Assembly: GCA_963813025.1 (NCBI GenBank) | Contig: CAWEXO010000011.1 | Location: forward strand, 96,001 to 160,000 | DNA from: an uncultured Verrucomicrobiae bacterium | GTDB taxonomy: Bacteria > Verrucomicrobiota > Verrucomicrobiia > Chthoniobacterales > JAFAMB01 | Length of the DNA: 64,000 nt | Reading direction: 5' to 3' | Shown here: positions 19,571-53,903 of the stretch, piece after piece | How positions within the stretch are numbered: position 1 is the first letter of the stretch | Layout of the letters: each line of letters begins with the position of its first letter | Notes under the pieces: model-generated | Told to the model about the DNA's origin: nothing | Database searches by the model: none | Seen by the model: the letters and a program-made list of their open reading frames with translations, nothing else | Translations under genes and position numbers: made by a program

Positions 19571-19939
19571 ATGGTTACTATTTGTTTGATTGAGGGAATG
19601 GTCGGCCGTCACCAGATCCTGCGTCCGGAGTTGCAGGCTTATCTCTGTCATTCCGGTAGTCAGCCCGGCCAGACTTGTAGTTTTGTGCTCGCCGCGCCAC
19701 CGCGGAGCCGAACCATCCCTTACAGTCATCTCCTGGTTATCGATTCCCTGGGCGATCGCTTGATCACCGTGCGGTATTCGTTTGCCGACGTCGAAGTTTC
19801 TCTCGGGCGCGACTTTTCCGGTAAACGCCAGTTTCTGGATGATCTGGCCAGTTTCCGGGTGGCTCTTGTGCGGGAAGGACCACAGCTGCGTCTCCGCATC
19901 GTGGCGGAGCCATTCGTCGATAAATCGGTCGAATTCTAA
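19571..19939 (+). CDS. Hypothetical protein (first gene of the mobile-derived islet)
   Basis: 122-aa ORF, beta-rich IPYSHLLVID...LITVRYSFADVEV...LDDLASFRVALVRE. Confidence 0.55.
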   Translation: MVTICLIEGMVGRHQILRPELQAYLCHSGSQPGQTCSFVLAAPPRSRTIPYSHLLVIDSLGDRLITVRYSFADVEVSLGRDFSGKRQFLDDLASFRVALVREGPQLRLRIVAEPFVDKSVEF

Positions 19940-19977
19940 ACCGCGTTTTTGGGCAAAGAAGATGCGAAGCCGTCAAT

Positions 19978-20529
19978 TTACGGCGAAGCGCTCGACCTCT
20001 GGCGAATTCCCCAGCGATTCATAATGGCGTTATTCAATGCGCGCCGGATGACGGGATTTTTTGCACAGACAAAGAATTGCTTCCACGGCGAGAGCGCCTC
20101 CAAAGCATCGAATTTCCGTGCTAAATCCAACAGCTGATCCATAACGTCTTCCGCGGTCGGGCTCAATATCCCGCGCAGTTCGGGAAGAGATTCGCGGGTC
20201 GATTCCGCGATTTGCAGGCAAAAGGCAATCAGCTTCGCGGTGCTGATCACACTCAAGTATCCAGGCCGGCCCATTTGTGCGGCACTAAAAAGACGCGCGA
20301 AATTATCCATTGAGATAACGCTGACCTCCCACTTGTCGCCGGCATCCGCGAACGCAAACGGGAATCGTGCATTGGCCAGATAATCACTGAGGCTCACTTC
20401 GACTTGCGGATCCGGCGGCTCCGCGAAATTATAGGTATGCTCGGGCAAGATCGACCGGATATCCAGCAGTTCGTCCGCGGTCAGATCACGCAAGCCTGGG
20501 ACGTTTGTCCGACGGTCTTGATCATTCAT
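19978..20529 (-). CDS. Hypothetical protein, paralog of 21346-21786
   Basis: 183 aa from MNDQDRR; directly downstream of the Rep_3 gene; shares C-terminal NAI/VxNRWG motif. Confidence 0.7.
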   Translation of the reverse strand: MNDQDRRTNVPGLRDLTADELLDIRSILPEHTYNFAEPPDPQVEVSLSDYLANARFPFAFADAGDKWEVSVISMDNFARLFSAAQMGRPGYLSVISTAKLIAFCLQIAESTRESLPELRGILSPTAEDVMDQLLDLARKFDALEALSPWKQFFVCAKNPVIRRALNNAIMNRWGIRQRSSASP

Positions 20530-20545
20530 CCCAGTACCGCGGGAC

Positions 20546-21280
20546 TCAGGCGCTCGGCTTTGATCCGTTTGCGCGAGCTTTTTTCTTCTTTTCCTTGATC
20601 TCGAAAGCCAGCGACAAGACCCGTCGATACTTGGCTTGGCCAACCGCAACCAACCGGATGCCCAGATCAGTTTTCTTGTTGATCTCCTGGAGAGCCCGAT
20701 CAATCGCCCGCTGCTTGAGATTCGGCCAATGAACCAGGCATCTTTCGCTGACTACGTTGCCCTCGGCGTCCCTGACTTCGTCAACACCCAGGATCTTCCG
20801 AATCTGAGGAATCGAAATCCGTTTCAGCCCGACGTGCCGCCAGCGCCACGCCCATTCGTAGAGGCGAATGGAATATTGGCTGGCCAATTTCACGCTGGCT
20901 CTTTCCGAATCGACCTTCTGGTGCGCTTTCAGACGCTCGAAATGCGGCAAGAGACCCGGATCGACATGCAGGAACATCTTCTTATCGACCATCACGATCG
21001 AACTCAACCAGCGGGCAAACAACACCGAGTTTTGCGGGTCGTTGTTATGCAAAACGAGCCGGTGATAGGTCAGGAGCTTCAGGGCCGCCGGTTCGAGCTT
21101 GAGATCGGTCCATTCGAAACTGATCAATCCCGGTTTCAAACGATCAACGATACTCATGACAATCGCCCGCTCGTCTGGACTGAGTTTATAATAAGCCTCG
21201 ATCAGGTCGTCGCCGAAACCGAGTTGCTCGGCCGATTCGGTTGAGGGCAACGTACCGAAAACTTTGTTGTATTTACGCAC
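20546..21280 (-). CDS. Rep_3/RepB-family plasmid-type replication initiator
   Basis: LIEAYYKLSPDERAIVM (WH1 start), KLASQYSIRLYE, ISIPQIRKILGV, WPNLKQRAIDRALQEINKKTDL, RRVLSLAFEI. Confidence 0.8.
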   Translation of the reverse strand: MRKYNKVFGTLPSTESAEQLGFGDDLIEAYYKLSPDERAIVMSIVDRLKPGLISFEWTDLKLEPAALKLLTYHRLVLHNNDPQNSVLFARWLSSIVMVDKKMFLHVDPGLLPHFERLKAHQKVDSERASVKLASQYSIRLYEWAWRWRHVGLKRISIPQIRKILGVDEVRDAEGNVVSERCLVHWPNLKQRAIDRALQEINKKTDLGIRLVAVGQAKYRRVLSLAFEIKEKKKKARANGSKPSA

Positions 21281-21345
21281 TTTACTTTCTCTGGATTAGA
21301 GTGTTACAACATTCTATACATTTTTTATTTTTAGAGAAGACAAAA

Positions 21346-21786
21346 ATGGTTAGCACCAAAGAAAGCCGCGCGACGACGACAACCGAAGCTACCCAGTGGT
21401 CATTTTCCGCTGATGGAAAACCACTCGGTCTGGATGAGTTCCTTGATAGCTACCGCGAGCAAGGGACTTTTTTCGAAGGCAAGGAGCAATGGCTGAAAGG
21501 AGTGAATAAGGTTACCTGGGAAAATTTCTTTTTGGTTTGCACTGAAGAATTGGACGACCTTTCTCAGCGAGCCGCTCGGATGCTTATCCTTTATTGCCTG
21601 GAAATCGTCGAACAGGTGGTCTCGCGAATGAAAGGGCCGGTTTCGGCGGCGCGGATTGCCGAGGCAATGAAGCGGGAATTTGATGAGCAATACGACAACC
21701 CGGTGTACCAATTCCAGTGGGCAATGCGCCACGACGCCGTGCGCGAAGCGGTCACCAATGCGGTCGTCAACCGCTGGGGACGTTGA
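21346..21786 (+). CDS. Hypothetical protein, paralog of 19978-20529
   Basis: 146 aa from MVSTKE; divergent from Rep_3 across a 65-bp AT-rich spacer. Confidence 0.7.
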   Translation: MVSTKESRATTTTEATQWSFSADGKPLGLDEFLDSYREQGTFFEGKEQWLKGVNKVTWENFFLVCTEELDDLSQRAARMLILYCLEIVEQVVSRMKGPVSAARIAEAMKREFDEQYDNPVYQFQWAMRHDAVREAVTNAVVNRWGR

Positions 21787-21955: not shown

Positions 21956-21992
21956 TTGACAAATATTATTACATTTATTTATATAGTTCCTA
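21956..21992 (+). promoter_or_regulatory. Sigma70-like promoter immediately before the virD4-like ATG (possibly leaderless)
   Basis: TTGACA at 21956, AT-rich spacer, TATATA/TATAGT at 21980-21987, ATG at 21993, no SD. Confidence 0.5.
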
Positions 21993-23819
21993 ATGATCGC
22001 CGAAACTGCTGCGCTTGGTTCACCGTCCCGGGTCCAGTCCCTGCCACAGTTCGATCGACTGAGCTGCCGAAATGCGCAGGGCGCTTTGATTCGTTTGTCT
22101 TTCGAACCGGCGTCAGCTCCGATCGTTCTCGAGCAGCATGGCGATTTCCGAATCTGCGCTGCGCTTTTGGAGACGAGCGGGCAATCGGCCGGCAGCGCCG
22201 GTTGTCTGTTCAGCGTGCGGATTTATCAGGGCAAAACCTGCATTCACGCTCGCACCTGGAGCACCGCCGAAATCTCGCTGGAAGAAGCGCGCCAAACTGC
22301 GCGAAGCTGGCTGCGGCAGCGCCGGCTGGGAGACCGAGTGGCGTTCGTCCTTTCGCCGGCATTGCTTTTACTTTGGTTTTGCTGCCTGGCTGCCGCCTGG
22401 TTTCTCTTTCCGCTCATCGCGTGGTCGGCTTTGTTGCCCCTGGCGGTTTCTTCTCCTCTCGCCTGGACTTTTGCGCCGCCGCGACGGCTACCGCAGACCT
22501 CAGCCCGCCTCGCCGGGCTCGCCTGGGATCGCAATGACTTTTGCCGCGGCTGGCTCATCACCGGCGATACTGGGTCCGGCAAGACCTTTGCCGTTAATGC
22601 GTTGTTACATTCTGTTTTTCAGCACGAACCCGATTGGGGCGGTCTCTGCTGCGATGAAAAAGGGGTTTATCACGAAATCCTGGCCGCCATGGTGCGCCAC
22701 TACGGCCGTCAAAATGATCTGCTCCTTTTGCAGACCCGGCCAGACCAGGCGCGGGATAATTGGGCACCCCCCGCTCGATACAATCTGCTGTCGGATGACA
22801 CGATTCCCCCCTCCACCTACGCTACTGTGATCGTCGATACCGCGTCTGCTTTAAACACCGGGAAAGAGGATCAAGGCTTTTTTAAGACCCAAGCCCACTC
22901 TTATATCGGCCGCGGTATCCAGCTCTTCCGCCTTCTCGGCCTGCGCCCGACTATGCATCATCTGCTGGAAATGCTGCAGTACCAGCCGGTCCTGAAAGCG
23001 ATGTTACAGGAACTGGAACCAAAAAAGAACGCGGGCGATCCCGACGCTAGCGATTGTCATGACCATTTCCTCAATGGTTTTCTGCGCCAGCCAGCCGAGC
23101 AACTGGGCGGGGTTATCTCGACGATTTATAACTACTTGAATTACTTCACCAATCCGGATATTGCCGAGGTATTCGGCACCGAGGAAAACACGTTTGATTT
23201 TAAAGCTCTGGATCGAGGAGCGATCATCTGCTTATCGATGCCGCAGAAGTATCAGACTGAGCGCCGCTACGTCACCACCATCCTGAAGCTTCTTTTTTAC
23301 ACACACGCCCTGCGTCGATTCGATCCACGCGACAACCGGCAGCGGAGCCGCGAACAGGACAACCTTCTGATCTGTTGGCAGGACGAGGCCCAACGATTCG
23401 TTACTGACTCGGACGGCAATGTCGATGTGCTTCGGCAGAGCAATGCGACCACCGTTATGGCCACACAATCAAAGATCTCCTTTTTTCCAGTGCTGGGTGG
23501 CCGGGAGAAAGCCGAAGTAACGATCCTTAACCTACGTAACCGGATAATCTTCAAGGCAGCTGACCGCGTTTGTGCAGAAAGCTCGGCTGATTTCATTGGC
23601 CGGCACCTGTTCTGGAAAAAATCGTACACGCGCGCGAAAGGCGGGATCAGCACGACCCGTTCTCGCGAAGAAGAATATCTGGTTAAACCATACCAGATAA
23701 TGAGCCTTCCCAAGTTCACGGCGATTATCAAGCATTGTGAACGCCCTTTTGTGCGGCGCCGGATCCATCCATTGGATCCGCAGGGCCGCACGCCTCGCTG
23801 GTACTCGCGCTGGGGATAG
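21993..23819 (+). CDS. Type IV coupling protein (VirD4/TraD/TraG-like ATPase)
   Basis: TM pair, Walker A ITGDTGSGKT, CDEKG, Walker B-like CWQDEAQRF, MATQS, AESSADFIG. Confidence 0.8.
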   Translation: MIAETAALGSPSRVQSLPQFDRLSCRNAQGALIRLSFEPASAPIVLEQHGDFRICAALLETSGQSAGSAGCLFSVRIYQGKTCIHARTWSTAEISLEEARQTARSWLRQRRLGDRVAFVLSPALLLLWFCCLAAAWFLFPLIAWSALLPLAVSSPLAWTFAPPRRLPQTSARLAGLAWDRNDFCRGWLITGDTGSGKTFAVNALLHSVFQHEPDWGGLCCDEKGVYHEILAAMVRHYGRQNDLLLLQTRPDQARDNWAPPARYNLLSDDTIPPSTYATVIVDTASALNTGKEDQGFFKTQAHSYIGRGIQLFRLLGLRPTMHHLLEMLQYQPVLKAMLQELEPKKNAGDPDASDCHDHFLNGFLRQPAEQLGGVISTIYNYLNYFTNPDIAEVFGTEENTFDFKALDRGAIICLSMPQKYQTERRYVTTILKLLFYTHALRRFDPRDNRQRSREQDNLLICWQDEAQRFVTDSDGNVDVLRQSNATTVMATQSKISFFPVLGGREKAEVTILNLRNRIIFKAADRVCAESSADFIGRHLFWKKSYTRAKGGISTTRSREEEYLVKPYQIMSLPKFTAIIKHCERPFVRRRIHPLDPQGRTPRWYSRWG

Positions 23820-26447: not shown

Positions 26448-26981
26448 ATGAAAGCTCAAATCTTAGGGGTTCTTTTCTGTATGTCGATCAACCCGCTCTT
26501 TGCAGCCGATTTTCGCCTGCAAAGCCCAAGCTTGCGGGACGGCGGTTCTGTACCGGTTGAGCATCTTTTGACAAAGTGCGGCGGCCGCAACCTTTCTCCG
26601 GCTTTAGCTTGGTCCGGCGCCCCGGCGGGAACAAAATCCTTCGCGGTGACTTTCTTCGACCCCGATGCTCCTGGCGGCCGTGGCTTTTGGCATTGGGCTA
26701 TCTTTGATCTGGCCCCGAAGATGGTGCGCCTTCCCGCCGGAGCCGGTGCGAGTACCGCCGGAATCCCCGGAGCAAAGCAAGCACGCAACGATTACGGATC
26801 GATCGGCTATGGCGGACCATGCCCGCCCGCCGGAGCCACTCACCGGTACGTTCTTACCGTGACGGCGCTCGACGTGGAAGATCTGCCCATATCGCCGAAC
26901 GCGAGCGCCGGACAGGTGGCCGCGCTGGTGTCCAAGCATGCTCTGGGCAAGGCTACGATCACCGTCCGCTATGGCCGCTAA
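26448..26981 (+). CDS. YbhB/YbcL (PEBP/Raf kinase inhibitor-like) exported protein
   Basis: Signal peptide, SPALAW, DPDAP..GFWHW, YGGPCPP..HRY. Confidence 0.9.
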   Translation: MKAQILGVLFCMSINPLFAADFRLQSPSLRDGGSVPVEHLLTKCGGRNLSPALAWSGAPAGTKSFAVTFFDPDAPGGRGFWHWAIFDLAPKMVRLPAGAGASTAGIPGAKQARNDYGSIGYGGPCPPAGATHRYVLTVTALDVEDLPISPNASAGQVAALVSKHALGKATITVRYGR

Positions 26982-28323
26982 GACAGCTCCATCGCGGAAG
27001 CCGGCCGCTGCCCACTGGCAGAGTTTTCAAGGCACACTCGACGATTGCGAGTTGTTCGACGTATTGCAAATGGCCTGCCTGGCCCAACAAACCGGACGGC
27101 TATTCGTCAGGCACCAACGGCGCCGGGGAATGGTTGTTCTCGAAGGCGGCAGTATCATCGACGCTCAAGCCGGCTATCTCTCGGGCGGAGACGCTCTGGT
27201 CGAGATTTTCTGCTGGCGAAGCGGCCGATTTCGCTTCACCAGAACCCAAACCTCTGAGCCCGGGCGAATAACGATCACCAACTCCTGGGAGCATGCGTTG
27301 ATGGAAGCCATCCGGAAACGGGACGAAAAATTGCCTTGGGCCGAGCGACCGCGTTTTGCCGGGGGATTAGCTCGTCGCCTGAGCCCGGCGGCATTGCAGA
27401 AAATCCGCCGAGCCAACCAGCGTGCGGTTATTCGGCATCTTTTGTTCCGGCTCGGAGTCCTGGTGGTTTGCGCCGGTCTTCTTCTGGGCGGCATTCACTT
27501 GTACCGGCACCGGGCAGCGTTGCTGTCGTCGTGGTGGAACAGCTCTTTTCTTGCGCAGAAGAATAACAGATTATTCGGGTGGAAAAAACGGGAACCCCGC
27601 AGTGTCGCCATACCAGCCGGCAGCTTTATCGACCAACGCGGCCGCGAAGTGACGTTGCCTGCCTTTGAAATAGATGATGTCGAGGTCCCAATTTGGCAAT
27701 ACCAAGAATTCCTCGATGCAATCGGCCCGAGTCATGCCTTCGATCATCCCGACCAACCTTCTTCCAAGACACACAGCAATCCGGAGTGGGTCGCGTACTC
27801 ACAGGCCGCGTTCCAATTCAAAATGTTCCACGGCACGAAACTGACGCCGAACCATCCAGCCGCCTATCTCGACTGGTTTGACGCCTACGCTTTCGCTGCC
27901 TGGCGCGGTCGCCGACTTTCTTCGGAGGAAGAATGGGAGAAAGCGGCCCAAGGTGTCCCGGACCTTCGATCGCGCGAACTTGCCCAAGATCCGGCGCTAG
28001 CATCGTCCGGCCGGCCGACGCAGCTCGGCGGTCCCGAGCCGGTCGGATCGAATCCAAACGATCGAAGCTCCATGGGAGTCTATGACCTGGCCGGAAACCT
28101 CTCTGAATGGTCTGGCACTCTGGACGCGGACGGTTCACCGATCGTTCGCGGAGGTAATTTCGAAAATGGTGGGGGCGACATTACTGAACGCGTCCTCCAT
28201 CTTTCGCCATTTCATCGGGATGGCCGAATCGGTTTTCGAACGGTAAAACCAGCTTCCGGCTTGGCCGGTCAGGCGCCGTCGGCCAAACCAATCTCCCCGG
28301 CCGAGGGAGCAAATCGCAAGTAG
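26971..28323 (+). CDS. DUF4388 (PATAN-like)-TM-FGE/sulfatase-modifying-fold protein
   Basis: FQGTLDDCELFDVLQMAC..QTGRL..G..ALVEIFCWRSGRFRF..WEHALMEA; one TM; FEIDDVEV, RLSSEEEWEKAA, GVYDLAGNLSEW, RGGNF, IGFR. Confidence 0.8.
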   Translation: MAAKTAPSRKPAAAHWQSFQGTLDDCELFDVLQMACLAQQTGRLFVRHQRRRGMVVLEGGSIIDAQAGYLSGGDALVEIFCWRSGRFRFTRTQTSEPGRITITNSWEHALMEAIRKRDEKLPWAERPRFAGGLARRLSPAALQKIRRANQRAVIRHLLFRLGVLVVCAGLLLGGIHLYRHRAALLSSWWNSSFLAQKNNRLFGWKKREPRSVAIPAGSFIDQRGREVTLPAFEIDDVEVPIWQYQEFLDAIGPSHAFDHPDQPSSKTHSNPEWVAYSQAAFQFKMFHGTKLTPNHPAAYLDWFDAYAFAAWRGRRLSSEEEWEKAAQGVPDLRSRELAQDPALASSGRPTQLGGPEPVGSNPNDRSSMGVYDLAGNLSEWSGTLDADGSPIVRGGNFENGGGDITERVLHLSPFHRDGRIGFRTVKPASGLAGQAPSAKPISPAEGANRK

Positions 28324-28406
28324 TGCAAAGCCGCCTTGAATACGTTCAATCATTTTGTTAGGAAATGAGCAAAACGCAATTCCTCGGCTGAGTATAACTG
28401 CCACAC

Positions 28407-29032
28407 ATGTCGTTCATCAATTTTGTTACCGGTGAGGTAGAGTTCAAAATCGTCTATTACGGCTGCGCCCTTGGCGGAAAGACAAGCAGCCTGGGTTACA
28501 TCCATGAACGGGTCGACGCGAATGACCGCGGCGACCTGCTGCTGTTGCCAACTCAGAACGATCGAACCTTGTTCTTTGATTTCTTACCGATTGATGGAGG
28601 TAGCGTTAAAGGCTTCAAGGTTCGCTTCAAGCTTTGGACCGTACCGGGTCAGGTGATGTACAATGCGACCCGTCAGTTGGTGCTGCGCGGTGCGGACGGG
28701 ATCGTTTTCGTCGCCGATCACAGTGGGAACGCATGGAAGCCAATATCGAAAGTTTGCGGAACCTGGAAGAGAATCTGGCTGAACTCAATTCCTCCGTCAG
28801 CCAGATCGCGTGGATCCTCTTTTACAACAAGAGAGATCTGCCGATGGAGACGATCGCCCCGGTCGAAGCTTTGGATCTGTTGCTCTTGACTGGGCGTCAA
28901 CGGGTTCCGCGATTTGCCGGCAGTTGCCTTGATGGTACCAACGTATTCAACGCGCTGAATGACGTGAGTCAGCGCGTCCTGCGCGAGTTTTTAGTCAAAG
29001 ACGATCTCGAAAATTACGAGGCTTACCGCTAA
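28407..29032 (+). CDS. mglA: MglA-family small GTPase (1-nt frameshift near 28720)
   Basis: KIVYYG..GGKTS, RTLFFDF, TVPGQ..YNATR..VLRGADGIVFVAD[S]Q..NIESL, YNKRDL. Confidence 0.85.
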
Positions 29033-44506: not shown

Positions 44507-45556
44507 GTTGAGCCACCTTTTGCTCCTTACCGGACCCGTGGTGAGGAGCGTTTGCGATGACGGGAGAGGGCTCGGTATCGGTCTTGGTGGCCGATTCTCC
44601 GCCGGTTCGTTCGTGGGCGATTGATCGGACGAACCGCAGGCTCTTCGGCATGCTGTCCGGGGGCTCCTGCCATTCTGCGGACACCTTCCGCTGCGGATCG
44701 ATCTCAGCGATCACCTGACGAAGCACGACCTCGAATTTATTCGCCACCGCCAAATCGTTCCGGTTCCCGTCGGCTGAGCCGGTGACAACAAAATAGACAA
44801 TCTGAGATTTTCCGGCCGGCACCAGACCGCCAGCATCGGAGACCGCCTGCGCGTAAACCTCATCCCCAACCCGTGCTCCAAAGCTTTCGGGATCGTAAAG
44901 GAAATCATGATCGGTCGGGTTAATGAGTTCGACTTCAAAGCCAACTGAGTCAAGCGCATCATCCCGCATCACTCGCCTCAGCACGATACCAACTCCGTTG
45001 GCCTCCGTGCGGTTTTCCGGCTCGGCGATCTCGAGATTAGCAAACATTTCGGGAGCGCTGTTCTTTAGAGCCGGAAAACCTTTGACCTTGTCCAGAAACC
45101 CTATCACCCTGGCCGGGGAGGCGACTTTAGTTTTCGCCAGCGTTTCGGCAGGCTTGGTCGAATGCCGGCTCGGGCCTTCATCGAAGATAACAACAAATGA
45201 CGCGTCCGCCGCTTCTTTGCAGAAAAGTGAGTAGACTTTACTGTCGAGTACAACACGTAAGATTACCTTCCGCGCCGGGGTGACACCGCTTTCAGTGAGA
45301 GGAAGTTCGTTCCTTTATTGAAAGAGATCTGGAATAGGTCCGGACCATCGGGCGAAGGGTTCAAAGAAAATCCGTATCCATCAAGAGCTTCGACCTTCAT
45401 AGGGAATTCCATCGTGGTGATTCCCTGGATTCCTACTTGAATTATCGAAGGCTCATTCTGGTTCAGCGAAAGGTGGACGATCTTCGAACTCAGATCAGGC
45501 TGACCGAACGACAAAGCTGGTAAGGTGGCGATCAGGAGCGAAACGATTTTACGCAT
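44499..45556 (-). CDS. VirB9/TraK-like exported T4SS protein (frameshift near 45270)
   Basis: Signal peptide, beta-rich (GITTMEFP, NFLSLKA), C-terminal beta domain; lies between VirB8- and VirB10-like genes. Confidence 0.6.
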
Positions 45557-45557
45557 A

Positions 45558-46352
45558 TCATTTCTTCTCAGTGGTCTGGAGTTGTAATTGTTCAGGCGGT
45601 CCGAAGTTATAATCCGTCACCGCAAAGGGGTATCGCCGATTTCTGCCGAGATAAGGATTTCGGACTAACTTCAAATTCAAGGAGACAGGCTGCGGCTGAG
45701 TGATCTGCTCACCGTCTATCTCCGCCTGGATCAACAACTGGCCGACGATGTGGGCGAGGATGGTCCCATTGTCAATCCGCTGCAGATCTAGCCGACCAAT
45801 CTCCAGTTTCTGGTGGATGCTCTTCTTGCGAAATTCGGAAGCTGCCGTTTCGAAGTCTTTCTTTGCCTTCTCGAAGGCTTGCGGAAGAAAAACTCTTTCC
45901 AGGGTTTCGGGCGCATCAAAACCTTGAGGCCCTCGGTCAAGAAACGATTTCGCCGCCCAGTAAGAAATCGACTCGAGGACCTCCCGGCTCTGCTCCGCCG
46001 GCACCAGCGGCGCGATAATCAACGATTCGGTACCGTCCAGAAGGGCTACTTTTTCCGGTTGACGCATAACGCTGACCAGATAAGTCGGAATAATGAGGTG
46101 CGCGACCAGGGAAATCAGCAGGGCCGCCCAAAGAAGGCGGACCTTCTGGCGACCCGAGGCTAGTTGACTGGCAGCGCGATGTCGCTCAACGGCCGCGGCA
46201 GAGTCTGAGATCCGTTTGACCTCCGATTCGATTAATTGCTGGCTGCGCAGCCACGACTCCGGGCCAGTGGGCGCACCATCGGAGGCAGTGATCGGCACCT
46301 CCGGCAAAGCCGGGGATTTGCGATTAACAGCGGCGTTTGGCGACGTACTCAT
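45558..46352 (-). CDS. VirB8/TraE-like bitopic T4SS protein
   Basis: One TM then an NTF2-like alpha/beta pattern ending NPYLGRNRRYPFAVTDY. Confidence 0.6.
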   Translation of the reverse strand: MSTSPNAAVNRKSPALPEVPITASDGAPTGPESWLRSQQLIESEVKRISDSAAAVERHRAASQLASGRQKVRLLWAALLISLVAHLIIPTYLVSVMRQPEKVALLDGTESLIIAPLVPAEQSREVLESISYWAAKSFLDRGPQGFDAPETLERVFLPQAFEKAKKDFETAASEFRKKSIHQKLEIGRLDLQRIDNGTILAHIVGQLLIQAEIDGEQITQPQPVSLNLKLVRNPYLGRNRRYPFAVTDYNFGPPEQLQLQTTEKK

Positions 46353-46361
46353 AGCCGGCGC

Positions 46362-47489
46362 TAGTGCCTAATTGCGTAAGTTAGTTATATGTATGGCGAC
46401 TTTCCCCTGATGTACCTGGGATTTGGTCCATTCGAAGGGAGCCGCATTGTTATTGTAGTTCTTGATGAAGGTGTCGATGGCGTTGCGCAGCTCTGCCACG
46501 CTGGTGAAGTTTGCCCCCTGGAGGGCTTGGCGGCTCAAGATACTAAACCAGATCTCAATCTGGTTGAGCCAAGAAGCGTGGGTTGGAGTGAAATGAAAAT
46601 GCACATTGGGGTGAGCCTTCAACCAGCGATCTTGCTTTGGCTTATGGGTCGCAAGGTTGTCTAAGACCACATGAATTTCTTTGTCGAGATTTCCGGCAAC
46701 TACCTGGTTCATAAACTCCAGGAATTCCCGTCGGCGCTGGCGCCGGTAATGACCAGCCTGCACTTGGCCGCTGGCAATGTTGAGGGCGGCAAAGAGAGTG
46801 GAGGTGCCATGGCGCTTGTACTCGTGGCTAAAACCCGTCAGCGCCCTGCCATTGGGCAAGCGAATCCAACCTTGGGCTCTTTCCAGGGCTTGAATGGCTG
46901 GTTTTTCATCAATGGCCAAGATGAGCGCATTCTGGGGCGGATTGAGATAAAGACCGACAATGTCAGCGGCCTTGCGCACAAACTCCGGATCGGTGGAAAT
47001 GCACCAGCTGCGGCGCCGTTCCAATTCAATGCCTTGTTGGCGCAAAATGCGCCAGACTTGATCGGAGGAAACATCGGCCAGACTCTGCGCCAGCAGTCGC
47101 CCATTCCAGCGCCCGTAGCCCGCCGGTGGATCTTCATCCAGCAGCGCCAAGACCCGCTTGACCGTCATTTGATCATACTTGGCCGGCTTTCCACTGCGTG
47201 GCGCGTCTTCCAAGCCAGCCAGGCCTTGGCGCACAAAGCGCCGCCGCCATTTACTCACCGTCACCTCGGGAATGCGCAGGCTCTTGGCAATCGCACGTCC
47301 ACTCAAGCCCGCTGCCGCCTTCAAGATAATCTGACTCCTGACCTTGAGCCGGTGTTCGACCCGTTGCGCTCGACTCCAACCCTCCAAGAGCTTGCGGTTT
47401 TCCACAGAAAGTTTGATGCAACCCATTGCCATCCATCCAACAAATCATAATTTTTCATAAATATAAAGAACTAAAGCAACTAAGTACTA
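46362..47489 (-). mobile_element. IS630-family insertion sequence with TA target duplication
   Basis: Ends CTAGTGCCTAATTGCGTAAGTTAGTTATAT (46361) and reverse complement CTAGTACTTAGTTGCTTTAGTTCTTTATAT (47490) match at 23/30; TA at 46362-63 and 47488-89. Confidence 0.92.
46368..47432 (-). CDS. IS630-family DDE transposase
   Basis: HTH (VSKWRRRF..GLEDAPRSG), IDEK, YKRHGT, VLDNLATHK, FTPTHASWLNQIEIWF. Confidence 0.95.
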   Translation of the reverse strand: MAMGCIKLSVENRKLLEGWSRAQRVEHRLKVRSQIILKAAAGLSGRAIAKSLRIPEVTVSKWRRRFVRQGLAGLEDAPRSGKPAKYDQMTVKRVLALLDEDPPAGYGRWNGRLLAQSLADVSSDQVWRILRQQGIELERRRSWCISTDPEFVRKAADIVGLYLNPPQNALILAIDEKPAIQALERAQGWIRLPNGRALTGFSHEYKRHGTSTLFAALNIASGQVQAGHYRRQRRREFLEFMNQVVAGNLDKEIHVVLDNLATHKPKQDRWLKAHPNVHFHFTPTHASWLNQIEIWFSILSRQALQGANFTSVAELRNAIDTFIKNYNNNAAPFEWTKSQVHQGKVAIHITNLRN

Positions 47490-49031
47490 GTCCCACATGT
47501 ACTGTTGGGCTCGATTCGAAGAATTTGTGACGCGTCCGTTCCGCTTAGTTAGCGCGCCGAAGGAACTCAGACCGTGGGCTGCGCCGACGGAATCTCCGGC
47601 GGCGTGCGCAGTGAGTGAGCCCAATGAACCCATCAAGTTTCCCCCGACCGATGTCAAGGAGTCGGCCGTGTCGAGGGGGGCCGCCAAGGCATCGGCCGCA
47701 CCAGTAATTATCCCGCCCACCAGGTTCTTCGCCTTGGAAGAAGACGATGTTCGCCCACCCCTCGAACCGCCCCGATTCCCGGGGAACTCTGTCCTAGCCA
47801 GACCTGAAGCGAACGCTCGACCATCGGCCAACGCCGGCAATCCTCGATCCTGGCCGACAGAGTTCGCTGCGCCGGCTTGAGAGTTCTTTGCCCCAAAGAG
47901 TCCACGACCGAAACCATTGACCATGTTCGACAATCCGCCCCCGACCTGACGAATCCCCGCGGCGACAGTTGAGGCGATCCCGCTATAGGCCGCGCCGGTC
48001 AGTGGACCGGTGGCCGCGAGCATGGACCCGGCGAAGCCCTGTAGTGCTGCTCCGCCGTGCGTAACGATCTTTTGCGCATAAAAGGGTGCCAGAAAATGAC
48101 CGATCAAGGTCCAGAAGAAAATCGGAATAATGGCGATAAGACCCAGCAAGATCGAGCCCAAATTGAGCGGATCGATCTGGGACATTCCGTCGAGTAGCCC
48201 GACCGTGATGATGTTGACAAAGACCCAGCCCACCGGCCAGCAATACGCCCCGACCAGGGTTTTCAGATACAGCACGCCTTGCGAGCGCAGCGAGTGAACG
48301 GTCAGCTCGGCTAATCCGATGGGCAGGTAGATTGAAAGAAAAATGAGAATAACTTGCTGGAGCAGCTGCATCAACCGCACTACAAAATCGCACGAGCGAA
48401 AAAGCAGGAGCACCAGCCATAGCAGCAGATTGCGGACGAAGCCCATCGCCCATTCAAACGACCCTGAATGCATCAGTTGCCAGGCAAACCAAGCGTTGAA
48501 TTGCAAGATTGAAGGTGACTTATCATTTGATTGACTGCTGTTCGGGCCGGTTGGGGTTTCGTTCGAGTTCGTCGTGTTTTGCGGGTTCGGATATTTCCTG
48601 TTCAGAACATCATCGATCATCGCCAGATCTGGTTGCAGGGTGTATTGAAACATCACTGGCTTGCCGGTACTCGTTAGCTGCATCTGCGTCGCTACCGTCG
48701 ATTTGGTAATTCCGTTCGCGGCCTGATCCAGCCAGTTTCTCCAGGTCTTCCCGCCAAAGATGAGGCTGGTGATAAGCATTAGACGAAGGACTGTTCCAAA
48801 AAAGTGGCGTTGATCCGCTCGTAGAAAATTCTGGACAGCGCTTACCACCAGCAGAACGAACGCGATGACAAGACTGATTTCCGCCAGGTTGTCGGCAAAG
48901 TTTTGTGCCGTGTCTATTACCTTCTGGACATCCAGAAAACCCGTGAAAGCGGACCCGGACCCGGTACCAGGCAAAGGACTGGGCGCCGTGGTTGCGGCAA
49001 ACAAAAAGAAACCCTGGATTCCGGCAAACAT
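47487..49031 (-). CDS. VirB6/TrbL-like polytopic T4SS protein
   Basis: Several TM segments and a long Gly/Ala/Ser-rich C-terminal tail; follows the TrbJ-like gene. Confidence 0.7.
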   Translation of the reverse strand: MFAGIQGFFLFAATTAPSPLPGTGSGSAFTGFLDVQKVIDTAQNFADNLAEISLVIAFVLLVVSAVQNFLRADQRHFFGTVLRLMLITSLIFGGKTWRNWLDQAANGITKSTVATQMQLTSTGKPVMFQYTLQPDLAMIDDVLNRKYPNPQNTTNSNETPTGPNSSQSNDKSPSILQFNAWFAWQLMHSGSFEWAMGFVRNLLLWLVLLLFRSCDFVVRLMQLLQQVILIFLSIYLPIGLAELTVHSLRSQGVLYLKTLVGAYCWPVGWVFVNIITVGLLDGMSQIDPLNLGSILLGLIAIIPIFFWTLIGHFLAPFYAQKIVTHGGAALQGFAGSMLAATGPLTGAAYSGIASTVAAGIRQVGGGLSNMVNGFGRGLFGAKNSQAGAANSVGQDRGLPALADGRAFASGLARTEFPGNRGGSRGGRTSSSSKAKNLVGGIITGAADALAAPLDTADSLTSVGGNLMGSLGSLTAHAAGDSVGAAHGLSSFGALTKRNGRVTNSSNRAQQYMWD

Positions 49032-49127: not shown

Positions 49128-49979
49128 TCAGCGCCCCGACAGCTCAGGGGCACTCTGGAAAAATTGATGTCCGCCGTTTAATAGCGTTGCCGTGTCGCTG
49201 GCAAAACCCTGAGCAGCTTGCTGCTTCGCTGCCAATGCTTGTCGCGCCTCGTCGTTCTGGTTCGCGGCCTGCTGGACCAGGACTTTCATAGCCGTGGCAT
49301 GAAGGCGGGACGACCAGTTGTCAAGACTGCCTTGCACCGCTTCAAGCTTTGCCTGCCATTTTTCTGTTTCCACCAGGGAGCCGGCCGCGTTCAACTGCTG
49401 CAAGCTCTGGTGTTTTTCCTGCTGCAACCGGGCAAGGGACTCATTGGCTGATAGCATCTCAGTATTATAAGATTCGTACAAGTCCTGCACCGCGCCGAAT
49501 CGTTTGAAACTGTTCGCATCGAATTGAACCTTCTGACCGAATCGATCCGGCAGGTTTGATAAATCGTCGTACAACCCTCCTGCCGTATTTTTTAACGCCA
49601 TGACTCCGTTGGCCGTTATTCGTATTTCGCCTATTGTCTGTCCGACTCCGCTCTTGATCTTGTTTACATCGGCCAGCAATGCATCGAGTCCGAGCATGTT
49701 TGTATAGTAGTCCGGGCTGCCGAAACGCTTGAGCGCTTCCGTACTCTGATTAATGACCTGCGTCAGTTGTTGGATTTGTTGAGCCTGTTTATTGATCATC
49801 TCACTGTATTTGGCTACGTCCTGTGCGTGATACCCGGCTTCCTTTACCTGGCCAATCGTTTGTTGAAGGATGTTGAGGACGGTGTGGATCGGGTCATGAA
49901 CGGTCGTGGCTTTCCCTTGATCCAACCCGGCTAAAGCCATTAGGAAGATCGCCGCTGAAAGGCCGCCCTTATTCGACAA
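49128..49979 (-). CDS. TrbJ/VirB5-like exported protein
   Basis: Signal-like N-terminus, VHDP motif, Q-rich coiled coils (QAQQIQQLTQ); start inferred at TTG 49979. Confidence 0.65.
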   Translation of the reverse strand: MSNKGGLSAAIFLMALAGLDQGKATTVHDPIHTVLNILQQTIGQVKEAGYHAQDVAKYSEMINKQAQQIQQLTQVINQSTEALKRFGSPDYYTNMLGLDALLADVNKIKSGVGQTIGEIRITANGVMALKNTAGGLYDDLSNLPDRFGQKVQFDANSFKRFGAVQDLYESYNTEMLSANESLARLQQEKHQSLQQLNAAGSLVETEKWQAKLEAVQGSLDNWSSRLHATAMKVLVQQAANQNDEARQALAAKQQAAQGFASDTATLLNGGHQFFQSAPELSGR

Positions 49980-50331
49980 TTGGAATCGTGATTTCACGAG
50001 AAACCCGGATAACCCCAGTACCGTCTTCATGTTCCGGCACGGTCGCGTTGTAATAACGAATATGGCCTTCATCAGTTTGCTGACTTGTTCTTTGGTTTTG
50101 TTGCTGCGCCCAATAGCTGCGTTTGATCTGGTCCGAAACACCTTTGGTGTAGCCTTTCGCAAATTCGATTGGCACCTTTCGCGCGTTCTCACCATCAGCC
50201 AGCAGCGGATCACCTTGGTCGGTCAGCGCTTCCGCTCCTCTTCCTTGCATCGTCTGCTGGCCTTTAGGCACAGTTGGGCCGACGGTGCACCCAGTGGCCA
50301 GCACGGCAATGAACACAAACCACTTCTTCAT
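49969..50331 (-). CDS. Small T4SS lipoprotein (VirB7/TraV-like by position)
   Basis: MKKWFVFIAVLATGC lipobox; overlaps virB4 stop. Confidence 0.65.
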   Translation of the reverse strand: MKKWFVFIAVLATGCTVGPTVPKGQQTMQGRGAEALTDQGDPLLADGENARKVPIEFAKGYTKGVSDQIKRSYWAQQQNQRTSQQTDEGHIRYYNATVPEHEDGTGVIRVSREITIPIVE

Positions 50332-53177
50332 AAGATTGGCTCGGTCGCGCATTCTTCGCTGGCAGCGTCGATCTTCTCCGATTCGGCAATAATCCCGGCA
50401 ACAATATTCCGGTACTGGCTCAGGGTAAGGGTGCGCAGATCAAAGATCTCATTATCACTCGAAGCCGCGTAGAGAAGCTCCCGGGAAGCCACATTCTTAA
50501 CCGTACCGACGAGCCGTCGGTTCTTATCGTTGGCCACGTAGGTAAACGCGCTAAAGCGCTCCCTCGGATCCATCAGCTCGGGCAAGGGATAGTTATGAAT
50601 CGTCTCAACCGCTTTCTCCGACAGACTGAGTGCTTCACCAATATCGCGGGCATCTTCTCTGCTTTGTTGAGACGTAATCAGAAACATCTTTGAGTTTCCG
50701 ATCATCGCGCTGCGAACGGGTGATTGTTTGAGAATGTCGTACTGCTGAACGACAGCCAGGATGTTACAGCCGAACTTGCGCATCTGTCGATAGTACTCCT
50801 GGATCATCTTCACTCCTCCGGGGATATCGAGTGTCCGGGCCGCTTCTTCAAAGATCGCTAGTTTTGGGACGGCACGCGGCATTGAGATAATCTTTTGGCG
50901 CCCGTAATTAGCGACCAGAAAGTTAGCGGCCGCGCGCAATTCGATGGCGTGTTCGGGAATCTGACCTAATTCGAAGTGAGCAACCCGGCCATCAATACGG
51001 ATATTGCTCACTCCGTCAAAAAGCTTTCCGCGCTCACCGTGACGGCTCCATGCTCGCAGCAATTTCCCTACCCGATCGGTTTCCTGACGGTCCCTCTCTC
51101 CGCCGCTTGAACTATAGAGTAGCTGTTCGACCAACGCGTTATGCGTGGGAAACTGCTCGGGTCGGAAATAGGCAAAGGCTAAATCGCGCACAAGCGATGC
51201 CGTCGCCGGATTTTTGGCGAACTCCGCTACTTCATTTTCGTCTTGTGATTGAAGGAAGACATGAGCCTCGTCCGCGCACGCTTTCTCCCAGTCCCGGAAA
51301 GCGGCAAACGCATCGACAAAGTTAAATTGCGAACTTCTCATTTTTGTCCGCAAATACCTGTCGATAGCCGAGGCGCGCCACCGGAGTTCCTCGCCGGCTG
51401 CTTCATGGGCCACTAACCAATCGTGAAAAACATCGGTATAAAGTTGCTGCAGATGTTCCACGATCATCGTTTGGCGGAGCGCTTTCCGTTCATTATCCAA
51501 ACCGTGGTCACCGCAAAAGAGCAGGCAAAGTCCGGCGCTAAAAGCGAGATGCATGGGGGATAGCGGCGACTCGCAGGTGTCAAGGTAATTAATTGTTAAG
51601 TTTCCATTCGGGTTAATCACGACAGGGTTGCACCCCTGCGTCTGAGTAAGAACGCCATGAGAAAGGCCCTCTTCAACAACTAAACGAAAACCGAATCGGT
51701 GCCCGATCTGGGCCAGCAGGTCACCGATAATAACCGACTTACCAGCGCCCGTCATACCAAAGACCACGCCGTGCTGCGGAGTGTTTCCCAAGCGGGTCTT
51801 GATCCCCACCAGGTTACCCCGGGCGCCATTGTAAATGGCTTCCGCTCCGTCCAAATGGCCGGTAAAGGTCGCCGACCAGGGTATCAGATCGGCAAGATAG
51901 GCGTCTTCCGCTGGCAGATCGAACTCCCGATAGGTGCCGCAGGTCCAGCCGGGCCAGGTCTGGTAGAATAGTTGGCGGGCGTTTTCCGGAATGATTGCGT
52001 GATGAACCACGGCACCGCCCATCGCGATAAACGCGTTCCGCATCGCGACACAACGAGCCGCCAGCGCGTCGGGATTCTGATGCCACAATCGAACAACGTA
52101 AAGGCAATCAAGGGGAATAACTTTGCCTTGCTGGATTTCGTGTACCTTCTCCTGTTTCGCGATCAGATCGGCGACTAACGACTGCTTTCGCTCGGAAGCG
52201 GCATCGATCTGGAGTCGTTGAATATGGCCCTCCTCGCGTTCGATGACTCGATCGATCGCTTTCGGGTAAACGTTGAGGGTAATTCCGTACTCTTGAAAGC
52301 CCATGCCGGTCAACGCCGTGACGATCCCGGGGAACGTTCGCCGAGGCCATTGGCGAACCGCGAAAATCGCGTGGTGATAGGAGCCGAGTGTAAAAGAGAC
52401 ACCAGGAAGATGTGACGGGCTGATGCCATCGGTATGGAGGCAGTTCTGCTGGATGGAAACGCCGGGATCGAAAAGCTCTATCGGATTGATCTCGGTCACG
52501 CCGAAGTTGGTGTTCAGGAACCGGTAATAAAAGAGAAAATGATCTCGATCAGAAAGCGGCGCTGTCCGGCAATCCGCGAACAAGCGGTTCAAAGTTCCGA
52601 GACCAAAATCGAGCAGCGCCCGACTTTCTTTGCGGGCCAGCGTATCGAAATACTCGGTCAAAACTCGCGGAGTCGTCAGCGGGGCGTGCGTCTCAATGGT
52701 ACGAGTAACAAAAACCGTCAGCCGTTCCCGGCGGAGGCGCCCTTCTTCCATCGCCGCTTTATAACGTTCGTAACGTTCCGCTCTGACCAGCACACCAAAC
52801 TGCCCGTAAACCGGGTCTTTCCGCCGAATCGAGAGTGTCTCCCGGTGATATTGATCGAGTTCGTGTCGATAGTCGCTGTCGATACTCCACTGGAATTGCA
52901 AACTGTGTTCTTCACCCATCGTGCCAACGAGAATACGGAGCCGCTCGTGAAGATCGTTGAGCTGGGTCACGCTGAAAGTGTTCACCTCGCCCGGCTCGAC
53001 GCTGAATCCGCGGGAAATCGCGGTTCGCCGGGAAGCGCCGTCGCCGAACCAGAGCAGGTCATGCAGGAAGAAACCATTCGGCATGCCGTGCCGCAACACG
53101 CGCGAGCTCGGTGCGCCCCGCCTCCCGGTCATCCGGCAGGCAATCGTACTCCCCAGATTGACAAGGGGTTGGATCAT
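50328..53177 (-). CDS. virB4: VirB4/TraC-like T4SS ATPase
   Basis: 949 aa; HGVVFGMTGAGKS, VEEGLS, HFELG, IFEEA, QMRKFG..VVQQ. Confidence 0.85.
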   Translation of the reverse strand: MIQPLVNLGSTIACRMTGRRGAPSSRVLRHGMPNGFFLHDLLWFGDGASRRTAISRGFSVEPGEVNTFSVTQLNDLHERLRILVGTMGEEHSLQFQWSIDSDYRHELDQYHRETLSIRRKDPVYGQFGVLVRAERYERYKAAMEEGRLRRERLTVFVTRTIETHAPLTTPRVLTEYFDTLARKESRALLDFGLGTLNRLFADCRTAPLSDRDHFLFYYRFLNTNFGVTEINPIELFDPGVSIQQNCLHTDGISPSHLPGVSFTLGSYHHAIFAVRQWPRRTFPGIVTALTGMGFQEYGITLNVYPKAIDRVIEREEGHIQRLQIDAASERKQSLVADLIAKQEKVHEIQQGKVIPLDCLYVVRLWHQNPDALAARCVAMRNAFIAMGGAVVHHAIIPENARQLFYQTWPGWTCGTYREFDLPAEDAYLADLIPWSATFTGHLDGAEAIYNGARGNLVGIKTRLGNTPQHGVVFGMTGAGKSVIIGDLLAQIGHRFGFRLVVEEGLSHGVLTQTQGCNPVVINPNGNLTINYLDTCESPLSPMHLAFSAGLCLLFCGDHGLDNERKALRQTMIVEHLQQLYTDVFHDWLVAHEAAGEELRWRASAIDRYLRTKMRSSQFNFVDAFAAFRDWEKACADEAHVFLQSQDENEVAEFAKNPATASLVRDLAFAYFRPEQFPTHNALVEQLLYSSSGGERDRQETDRVGKLLRAWSRHGERGKLFDGVSNIRIDGRVAHFELGQIPEHAIELRAAANFLVANYGRQKIISMPRAVPKLAIFEEAARTLDIPGGVKMIQEYYRQMRKFGCNILAVVQQYDILKQSPVRSAMIGNSKMFLITSQQSREDARDIGEALSLSEKAVETIHNYPLPELMDPRERFSAFTYVANDKNRRLVGTVKNVASRELLYAASSDNEIFDLRTLTLSQYRNIVAGIIAESEKIDAASEECATEPIL

Positions 53178-53512
53178 TCCGGGAAGAGGAAAGGATGGTG
53201 CGGTTGGGCTTTTGCCGGACGAAACGCCGGGCCATTCACCCAGGAAGCGAGCAGATCACGATCGAAACGCGGAGGGCGCCGGTTGCGGAACAAGATGATG
53301 TAGCCCGCGGTCAAAACGGTCGGAGCCAGGGACACCATGAATTTGACGGCGAGAGGGAGCATATTGCGCCCGCTGAAAAGCATCGTAAGGACAAAGACCG
53401 AGACCATGCCCGCGACGATCACCGGCATGCCGAGATTCCCCTCAAACCCAAAGGCATGTCCTGTCGATTTCGCCCGTGGCCGGGTGTCGGTGTAGATCAG
53501 ATTATCTTTCAT
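53174..53512 (-). CDS. VirB3-like small membrane protein
   Basis: Two TMs, FGFEG, RPPRFDRD; lies between pilin and virB4. Confidence 0.6.
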   Translation of the reverse strand: MKDNLIYTDTRPRAKSTGHAFGFEGNLGMPVIVAGMVSVFVLTMLFSGRNMLPLAVKFMVSLAPTVLTAGYIILFRNRRPPRFDRDLLASWVNGPAFRPAKAQPHHPFLFPE

Positions 53513-53537
53513 CGAGTCGCGGTATACCGAGCGTGAC

Positions 53538-53903
53538 CTAAAATCCGCTAACCGCGTTCGCGGTGGGGCTGCCGCCACTGAAGAGCGCGAACAACGCCTT
53601 CATCAAAACTACGGCGCCGGCCACGCCGATTCCGTAGACGACTGTCATCTTCCAGTTTTCGTCCCGTTTCGCGTTCAGAAATCCTCCCATTACCATCACG
53701 CAGCCGGCGATGAAGCCAAAAATGGTGATTAGATTCAGACCGCTCTGGAGCGGATTAGTAAAGTTGCTCAGGTTGGCAGCCTGACCGGTTTGAGCAAAAA
53801 TCGGTGTTGCCTGGAGAAGAAGGCTTGCCAGCAAGCCCGCGAAAAGCTTCAGCACTCCGGGCCGGCTCGCTCGCGGGAGCGCTGTGGACGATGCTCTGTT
53901 CAT
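53538..53903 (-). CDS. VirB2/TrbC-like conjugative pilin
   Basis: Long signal peptide (PIFA|Q) then two hydrophobic helices split by NAKRDENWK; first gene of operon after an AT-rich spacer. Confidence 0.65.
   Translation of the reverse strand: MNRASSTALPRASRPGVLKLFAGLLASLLLQATPIFAQTGQAANLSNFTNPLQSGLNLITIFGFIAGCVMVMGGFLNAKRDENWKMTVVYGIGVAGAVVLMKALFALFSGGSPTANAVSGF

Follow-up and report, generated by a model that had tools for sequence, protein, structure and literature searches.

How has a bacterial chromosome come to keep a conjugation machine with no relaxase beside it, and what does the cell use it for? The question is raised by a 64,000-nucleotide stretch of DNA (the window) from an uncultured Verrucomicrobiae bacterium, in which the genes of a type IV secretion system (T4SS) are scattered among housekeeping genes. 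The window comprises bases 96,001-160,000 of a 1.02-Mb contig in a 4.4-Mb genome that is 80% complete. An earlier note, made from the letters of the stretch, proposed that the system had been domesticated by its host. We find that the locus is a real domesticated T4SS and not a decaying integrative and conjugative element (ICE). Four lines of evidence support this conclusion: the system is present throughout the family, its junctions with folC and nadC are conserved, its gene trees are congruent with that of FtsI, and its ratios of non-synonymous to synonymous substitution (dN/dS) resemble those of a core gene. The proposal was thus upheld by every one of the suggested tests that was run (presence, junctions, trees and dN/dS). 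In what follows G-numbers denote the genomes compared (G000 is the window's genome and G001 belongs to the same genus) and C-numbers denote contigs.

Searches for the VirB4 ATPase matched 22 of 24 genomes of the family and none of 16 genomes from other families of the order. Among family genomes that are at least 80% complete the count is 28 of 30, and it is 10 of 10 for those of high quality, while the same type of VirB4 is patchy across the class (75 of 400 other genomes). The coupling protein VirD4 was matched in 23 of the 24 family genomes, 22 of which have the family type (at least 61%), and a homolog of Rep3 plasmid initiators in 22 of them at 75-92%; neither was found in the 16 genomes outside the family. 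A PilT ATPase is present in 19 of the 24. Trees of these proteins share many splits with the FtsI tree (VirB4 11/19, on 22 shared taxa with the short G017 fragment excluded; VirD4 12/18 on 21 taxa; Rep3 12/18 on 21; PilT 11/17 on 20), against a random maximum of 3-4, and no strongly supported split conflicts with it. The FtsI tree is a proxy and not a species tree, because it is built from one gene, which in several genomes is no more than about 25 kb from the locus. Pairwise dN/dS within genera is 0.026-0.082 for virB4 (8 pairs), 0.055-0.133 for virD4 (7 pairs), 0.015-0.064 for rep3 (6 pairs) and 0.033-0.102 for pilT (7 pairs), compared with 0.033-0.090 for the core gene ftsI (8 pairs). An ICE is expected to be patchy, variably placed and at odds with the host tree; the fixed locus is none of these.

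The features of the locus, with operator scores from the matrix described below, are:

19558..19576: operator palindrome AAC-N13-GTT at the start of orfC, score 17.4
19571..19939, plus strand: orfC, directly after folC; position conserved, without a Pfam match
19978..20529, minus strand: orfA, a paralog of orfB, downstream of rep3
20546..21280, minus strand: rep3, homolog of Rep3-type plasmid initiators with winged-helix domains WH1 and WH2 (PF01051/PF21205)
21281..21345: conserved AT-rich divergent promoter region of rep3 and orfB
21346..21786, plus strand: orfB, encoding a 146-amino-acid helical protein
21970..21988: operator before virD4 that closely follows a TTGACA, score 21.6
21993..23819, plus strand: VirD4-like type IV coupling protein (PF10412, PF12696)
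26971..28323, plus strand: membrane protein with DUF4388 and FGE, opening the pilin cassette
28341..28359: operator upstream of mglA, score 15.6
28407..29032, plus strand: MglA-like small GTPase, with one frameshift in this assembly
29087..29533, plus strand: type IV pilin with N-methyl motif (PF07963, TIGR02532)
29530..30588, plus strand: PilT-family ATPase
41757..42630, minus strand: ClpB-D2-type AAA+ ATPase, frameshifted in this assembly
42673..43365, minus strand: second lipoprotein of the virB operon, frameshifted here
43355..44527, minus strand: VirB10 (PF03743), frameshifted here
44499..45556, minus strand: VirB9-like, named by position, frameshifted here
45558..46352, minus strand: VirB8-like, from a weak TraE match (15 bits) and position
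46361..47490, minus strand: IS630 insertion sequence between virB6 and virB8 (PF13358)
47487..49031, minus strand: VirB6-like polytopic membrane protein, from position and hydrophobicity; about 30% identity across genera
49128..49973, minus strand: VirB5/TrbJ-like, weak NF010448 match
49969..50331, minus strand: first lipoprotein, VirB7-like by size
50328..53177, minus strand: VirB4 ATPase (PF19044)
53174..53512, minus strand: VirB3-like, by position
53538..53903, minus strand: VirB2-like pilin (PF04956, 27.0 bits in the G008 ortholog against a cut-off of 27.9)
53904-53922 and 53948-53966: two tandem operators upstream of virB2, scores 18.2 and 15.4

Most of the parts named in the earlier note hold up. 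The VirB-like operon is confirmed at 41757-53903 (minus strand), with B3, B6 and B9 named by position only, as is the VirD4-like coupling ATPase at 21993-23819 (PF10412, PF12696). The pilin and its companion ATPase are present at 29087-30588, but the ATPase, which had been placed in a PilT/VirB11 superfamily, belongs with PilT: it scores 262.9 bits with TIGR01420 (PilT), 158.7 with TraJ, 140.5 with DotB and 60.3 with VirB11. These scores, and the absence of the gene from seven ICE-type loci, rule it out as VirB11 or DotB. The curated Pfam cut-off was passed only by VirB4, the coupling protein and VirB10, the last (PF03743) in the intact ortholog of G008; in that genome's operon B3, B6 and B9 matched no profile and the AAA+ protein is a ClpB-D2-type ATPase. 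The coupling protein has intact Walker A and B motifs (GDTGSGKT and WQDEAQ) and an extra N-terminal domain of about 100 amino acids (window 21993-22330) that mobile-type copies and genus g6 lack; it had no match in the structure Atlas, a blank that does not make the fold new. In G000, which is 80% complete, we found no VirB11, nor, for VirB1, any match to the SLT transglycosylase of the sister system described below. The earlier note had missed the Rep3 initiator with orfA and orfB, the IS630 and the frameshifts in four operon genes.

A VirB4 with co-located channel genes and a coupling protein with intact Walker motifs identify the locus as a T4SS in the general sense; its class is harder to place. 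It lacks the VirB11 of mating-pair formation (MPF) class T and falls below the cut-offs of class-specific profiles (TIGR00929, 66.8 bits against a cut-off of 643), and PF03135 was found in none of five genomes. It differs from MPF-I and Dot/Icm systems in an ATPase that scores higher as PilT than as TraJ or DotB and that follows a type IV pilin. The nearest NCBIfam models are far below cut-off (TraC-F 72 bits, TraG-B 18 bits). It does share the features of relaxase-less co-opted T4SSs, being chromosomal, without an adjacent relaxase or integrase, and under selection.

Four operon genes (virB9, virB10, the second lipoprotein gene and the AAA gene) are frameshifted in G000, with an IS630 upstream of them, as might be expected of the remnant of a decaying ICE. 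That explanation is very improbable and is largely refuted for the family, given the family-wide presence and core-level dN/dS. In G001, G008 and G015 all four genes read as single frames. Host genes in the window are broken as well (hscA, a MATE gene, mglA and an outer-membrane gene), mostly by one-base deletions, and so are essential genes elsewhere in the genome (on C11, tuf at about 270 kb, fusA at about 326 kb and recA at about 679 kb), so that calls of pseudogenes in this assembly are unreliable. Contigs from a short-read run (X1), in which 21 of 49 aligned pieces reach 99% similarity or more, have an additional base at 36996, 41781, 41815, 41816 and 41944, each seen in one contig at a depth of 2.5-3.6; alignment with G001 places single-base deletions at 37001, 41782, 41811, 41819 and 41944. 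The operon frameshifts are most likely assembly errors, and the breaks in virB9 and virB10, which like the IS630 junctions were not spanned by the short-read contigs, are likely to be artefacts too. The IS630 at 46361-47490 has 24 further copies that are at least 99% identical in G000 (25 in total) and is absent from G001; it is a strain-level insertion. It interrupts no reading frame, and could be polar on the downstream genes in this strain. The genome as a whole has undergone a recent burst of near-identical IS630 copies and also contains more distant IS630 families.

Synteny around the locus was mapped in six relatives. The junction of nadC with virB2 is kept in five of the six, as well as in G009 and G010, and folC is followed by orfC-rep3-orfB-virD4 wherever both regions were retrieved, so the two junctions that the earlier note had singled out at these ends are conserved; a third, between pilT and polX, was seen in one of the six. 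In genus g4 (L282, L107, L147, L150) virB2 diverges from a gene other than nadC, a 35-39% homolog of a 185-amino-acid gene that in G000 lies just upstream of the pilus operon discussed below. In most genera the stretch between the operon and virD4 holds the DUF4388-FGE gene, mglA, the pilin gene and pilT. The distance from virD4 to the operon is 18-20 kb in the window's genus, 8-12 kb in G008, G015, G016 and G017, 0.1-3.3 kb in seven g4 genomes and more than a megabase in G007. Because this gap varies by lineage, dispersal is incidental, and the earlier suggestion that it is itself a sign of domestication fails on the seven g4 genomes. The core-gene spacer is real in the window, but among the six relatives mapped polX, purK, dus and hscA separate the islets only in this genus (G000, G001). 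That the three islets form one system is nonetheless supported, on grounds new to this analysis: they share an operator, and a second cassette joins rep3, a VirB9 paralog, mglA, pilin and pilT. Genome G018 has two near-identical virB operons, on C38 and C22, with no virD4 or rep3 match; these may be an assembly duplicate. A chromid or plasmid contig is ruled out for G000, as the contig holds rpoB, rpoC, gyrB and tuf. GC content is flat over the window, at about 49-62%, and close homologs of its genes are assigned by their sources to Chthoniobacterales or Verrucomicrobia.

The likely source of the machine is a class of MOBF-type ICEs widespread in Verrucomicrobia. All seven loci retrieved from other families have the same operon type and order, including the ClpB-D2 AAA+ gene; within the retrieved stretches a TrwC (MOBF) relaxase accompanies four of the seven and a coupling protein three, and the ancestral-type coupling proteins sit beside TrwC. 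Their best identity to the fixed VirD4 is 52%, and VirB4 identity is 38-42%. Further relatives lie among integrases, defence genes and metal-resistance genes. These elements differ from the fixed T4SS in their patchy occurrence and their cargo, and in lacking Rep3, orfA/B and PilT (none in the seven loci) and the operator (no site in 20 upstream regions from ICE-type relatives). At six of six loci from other families, neither mglA nor pilin nor pilT accompanied the DUF4388-FGE gene. A second, sporadic system within the family is sister to the fixed copies, which make up one clade in the VirB4 tree and one in the VirD4 tree; these trees hold eight fixed rows each, and their deeper joins carry long-branch warnings. 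We infer that the fixed T4SS descends from a MOBF conjugative element. The ICE class itself (L214-L235, L236-L255) combines the ClpB-D2 AAA+ gene with the absence of a VirB11 match and of any NCBIfam profile above cut-off, and we found no published name for it. The sporadic sister T4SS (L088-L089, G001:C1:247-271 kb) has a VirB4 at 46%, a transglycosylase, a zeta-toxin/KfrB gene and an 856-amino-acid membrane protein; no relaxase was seen near it in the 60 kb retrieved.

The fixed system, for its part, has no relaxase beside it in the window or at the relatives' loci. The earlier note's reading is borne out here: among the 88 open reading frames scanned there was no relaxase and no integrase, and the window has no tRNA, att repeats being unsearched over the whole span. 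Relaxase genes do occur elsewhere in the family. In G000 these are only pieces, namely fragments of MOBF (C4, C8 and C13) and a split MOBP (C5); across the family, matches to MOBF were found in 15 of 31 genomes and to MOBP in three of 31, never at a fixed locus. MOBH, MOBV and MOBQ were absent from five of five well-assembled genomes; the MOBC profile matched none of the five either, but gave no match in control genomes.

These relaxases bear on a rival explanation in which the T4SS and its coupling protein form a host-owned mating channel that exports DNA (hitchhiking elements and the chromosome, or DNA for kin) together with the uptake genes. Single genomes have up to 14 and 17 MOBF matches; G045 has 14 MOBF and four MOBP matches, yet one VirB4. 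No VirD4 or VirB match lies near the family's MOBF genes (0 of 12 loci), whereas an integrase accompanies five of the ten scanned and a Rep gene two; a further element, found in G008, brings a coupling protein of its own. Of 11 family relaxases, ten group in a clade separate from ICE relaxases; the MOBF enzymes keep their catalytic motifs, and the 26 best relaxase matches among 301 genomes of the order all come from this family, although the query was itself a family sequence. One subgroup of the MOBF integrative or mobilizable elements (L132-L141, L143, L144; G000:C4:156356-156920) has an inverted repeat and an oriT-like motif in common. Such elements could ride the fixed channel, and the position of the ancestral coupling proteins beside TrwC also counts for this rival. 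Against this, 16 of the 31 genomes lack MOBF while selection on the T4SS is uniform, and G007, assembled in two contigs and 95% complete, has an intact T4SS and no match to MOBF, MOBP, MOBH, MOBV or MOBQ (MOBT, MOBM, MOBB and MOBL were unsearched). Such elements cannot account for the upkeep of the T4SS where a genome has none of them; hitchhiking may be a side effect and not the selected function. Hitchhikers are described as outnumbering helpers in many bacteria (10.64898/2026.01.13.699239). A chromosomal oriT at the fixed locus was looked for and rejected: the family's oriT-like motif was found only beside the truncated relaxase on C4. On balance we regard a mating channel as an unlikely explanation.

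Another lead came from the upstream regions. Their alignment revealed a palindrome, AAC-N13-GTT with an AT-rich spacer. In its strict form it precedes virB2 in 13 of 17 regions, virD4 in 17 of 21 and mglA in six of nine, against means of 0.3-0.8 in shuffled sequence; a relaxed form is found before virB2 in 16 of 17 and before virD4 in 21 of 21. Spacers of other lengths from 6 to 21 gave at most four regions with a strict motif. The strict motif was found in no more than one region at each of nine host genes (accD 0/15, comF 1/15, caax 0/15, parA 0/6, the others 0 of 2-5) and not at all before FGE, pilin, AI-2E or virB8. It occurs in three of eight regions before nadC, where the upstream region is common with virB2, and in four of 21 before rep3 and orfB, within coding sequence.

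A score matrix built from 61 sites, with virB2, virD4 and mglA as training genes, found 68 sites in G000 scoring at least 14, compared with 17-40 for other spacers, and 18 sites scoring at least 20, compared with 1-4. The best site in the genome (25.7) lies 16-40 bases before comEC; others precede a ChlI-type gene that we take to be comM, and a gene within an operon of pilin, PilC, secretin and PilB. This operon fits PilB and GspE about equally well by score; we call it the pilus operon since C14 holds a GspG/GspJ/secretin cluster apart from it. Outside the training set, the operator was recovered before orfC in 13 of 17 regions, before the pilus operon in four of four other genomes, and before comM in G001 (13.0 and 10.3), while host controls gave few sites (folC 0/16, citrate synthase 0/7, sucD 0/5, leuA 1/4, nadC 1/5). 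The virD4 site directly follows a TTGACA, and for this reason the palindrome is suggested to be a repressor site. That virD4 has a promoter of its own, as the earlier note had it, is in keeping with a conserved AT-rich upstream region and a TTGACA in many relatives, although a strict sigma-70 scan of 19400-24100 returned no site. An SOS regulon is unlikely, as recA has no site. An operator common to the T4SS and the uptake genes suggests that the machine may now help the cell to obtain or trade DNA.

Two further sets of sites in G000 deserve mention in their own right. The operator also stands before Y1/IS200-like transposase genes, genes for 23S-IVP four-helix proteins and an ERCC4 nuclease gene (C13:20930, C11:550800, C13:707381, C5:185057, C13:606927, C12:157535, C9:181749), where it often ends on the start codon; these mobile genes may be tapping the same switch. 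At C14:150995-151062 (L292), two strong operators stand in tandem, as at virB2 (18.0 and 25.1), at the gene for a 162-amino-acid predicted secreted protein without a Pfam match, which is a candidate member of the system.

One candidate for the binder is the product of rep3. It matches R6K pi and F RepE best among PDB sequences, and the WH2 DNA-binding domain is nearly invariant; its gene evolves more slowly than FtsI, is single-copy and chromosomal, and coexists with DnaA. A working origin was considered and rejected, there being no iteron array beside rep3 in four of four regions, DnaA being present and the contig's GC-skew switch lying roughly 400 kb away (a rough estimate). The divergent region between rep3 and orfB is 63-71 bp in 25 of 25 genomes, with an invariant CACTTTACTTT and TGTTA. 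RepE dimers are described as repressing through inverted repeats (PMC13028717). Because RepE dimers bind such repeats and the DNA-binding domain here is nearly invariant, the Rep3 homolog is a possible repressor, a candidacy that we put forward with some doubt. At window 12122-13635, 7 kb from rep3, lies a conserved ParA-like ATPase gene with a 206-amino-acid partner and no operator before it in six of six regions; comF is at 16748-17455, just upstream of accD-folC and 3 kb from rep3.

The companions of rep3 are less readily named. OrfC has 49 homologs at 58-91%, none with a functional name, and no Pfam match. OrfB has 162 homologs, of which the 120 listed are all at 70% or more; its model reaches a pLDDT of 86.5 with an alignment and 48.7 from the single sequence. 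Its fold gave a best Z of 4.8, no Foldseek match and a blank in the Atlas, and such blanks do not make the fold new. The name MglA comes from sequence resemblance, Pfam giving Arf/Roc for a paralog. Genus g4 lacks orfA and the pilin cassette at the main locus and has the pilin cassette within the second cassette, in which an orfB paralog is followed in one direction by paralogs of rep3, orfA, virB9, FGE, mglA, pilin and pilT. This second cassette is whole or partial in 12 genomes of three genera (G002, G004, G012, G022, G023, G042, G044, G045, G046, G048, G049 and G441) and was not seen in G000. Its loci are L254 (G012:C2:629-636 kb), L277, L279, L280, L281, L287, L278, L284, L260, L256, L257 and L283; in six g4 genomes it adjoins citrate synthase and/or leuA, and its VirB9 paralog is split in some genomes (G046, G048, G441).

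The explanation that we favor, tentatively and at somewhat less than an even chance, is a host T4SS co-regulated with DNA uptake that delivers proteins on contact so that the DNA of neighbors is freed. In the ancestor of this Chthoniobacterales family, a conjugative element of the MOBF ICE class would have been fixed between folC and nadC, lost its relaxase and come under a host-wide operator. With the palindrome as a putative repressor site, comEC, comM, the pilus operon, mglA-pilin-pilT and the T4SS would be switched on together. The PilT-retracted pilus would draw DNA and neighbors close, the T4SS would deliver proteins into contacted cells through the retained coupling ATPase, and the freed DNA would be taken up through ComEC and recombined with the help of ComM. 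A protein cargo is favored because the coupling protein is kept without a relaxase; in the account given in PMC4027160, relaxase-less T4SSs retaining a coupling protein are typically protein secretors. Acquisition of DNA linked to a type VI secretion system (T6SS) is described in competent Vibrio cholerae (PMC6783263). The fuller version, in which a conjugative element became the contact arm of the family's natural-transformation program with a former plasmid initiator as its master repressor, is rather doubtful as a whole.

The T4SS might instead carry DNA over the outer membrane to ComEC itself. Its operator in common with comEC and comM would fit such an importer, and Helicobacter pylori is described as importing DNA by a relaxase-less T4SS, ComB (PMC3548315). 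This family, however, has pilin, PilT, PilB/PilC and secretins, beside which a second way in would be superfluous; because pilus, PilT, secretin and ComEC already form an entry route, the T4SS most likely adds another function. ComB is not known to have a coupling protein, whereas the one here is under selection and of the family type in 22 of 24 genomes. A ComB-like importer is improbable on these grounds.

Several observations weigh against protein delivery tied to DNA uptake. Neither dprA nor recA has an operator in G000, no comEA was located there, and the operon containing comF has no site. The comEC site is known from this genome only and the comM site from two genomes of one genus; the 24 ComECs found in a metagenome scan are distant (22-45%) and none is from this family. 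Many of the 68 sites, of which 20 regions were annotated, precede unrelated genes (acetyl-CoA synthetase, methyltransferases, a NusG-like gene, Y1 transposases, 23S-IVP genes, bactofilin), so the regulon may exceed DNA uptake. The matrix favors AT-rich DNA and was trained on T4SS and mglA regions; a control with a spacer of 16 also scores before comEC and in the pilus operon, and one with a spacer of 17 before virB2. The promoter of rep3 itself lacks the motif, the virB9 of the second cassette has an operator in just two of 12 cases, related genomes are non-independent samples, and no effector or immunity gene was identified, no search for XVIPCD having been made. The absence of sites at dprA and recA and the unrelated genes behind most annotated sites would suit a stand-alone protein secretor, directed for example towards protists, fungi or roots, with the palindrome serving a broad stress or growth-phase regulon that includes comEC by chance. 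The Rickettsiales offer a precedent in vertically inherited, split, relaxase-less T4SSs that serve contact with eukaryotes (PMC2653234). We give this possibility little weight, since the genome's best site is at comEC, comM, two pilin-bearing operons and the T4SS also carry the operator, and no eukaryote-like effectors were seen near the locus.

Relaxase-less, co-opted T4SSs are a known kind (PMC3548315, PMC4027160), with vertically kept examples in the Rickettsiales rvh system (PMC2653234) and the Xanthomonadales X-T4SS (PMC7777525), and those of free-living bacteria have been pointed to as a likely reservoir of unknown functions (PMC3548315). We found no published description of this locus, in a search with most subscription journals and all supplements outside its scope. 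The present T4SS is family-wide and comes from an ICE class without a matching curated profile, and a defined DNA site links it to the DNA-uptake genes. The question of function thereby becomes concrete: which protein binds the 19-bp palindrome, and which genes are induced in concert? Should Rep3 prove to be that protein, a plasmid initiator has been re-employed as a chromosomal regulator; F RepE and R6K pi share WH1 and WH2 with it, but they are iteron initiators, whereas the fixed gene is single-copy, chromosomal and without iterons.

For each of ICEs, MPF-T, MPF-I, the X-T4SS and ComB, at least one of the features tested sets the fixed T4SS apart. Like rvh, as described in PMC2653234, it is vertical, chromosomal, split into islets and has kept VirD4; rvh is VirB-type, has VirB11 and belongs to intracellular bacteria, whereas the system here lacks VirB11, stems from a different ICE class, is contiguous in one genus, occurs in soil bacteria and has a competence-linked operator. 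H. pylori ComB, for import, and the gonococcal genetic island of Neisseria, for DNA release, are T4SSs co-opted for natural transformation; the island needs its own MOBH relaxase (PMC3548315), and MOBH was found in none of five genomes of this family. The X-T4SS, portrayed in PMC7777525 as chromosomal, equipped with VirD4 and distinct from conjugative T4SSs, kills neighbors, the mechanism that we infer for the fixed T4SS, which may work in a similar way; that system has VirB1, VirB11 and XVIPCD-tagged effectors with immunity genes, and VirB1 and VirB11 were not found here. A parallel in purpose would be the competence-linked T6SS of V. cholerae, in which contact secretion is tied to DNA uptake by a different machine and different regulators, the link being experimental there (PMC6783263) and deduced from the operator here. 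If that link holds, conjugation machinery and natural transformation are joined in one host program, as a T4SS counterpart of the kill-and-take-up strategy of Vibrio.

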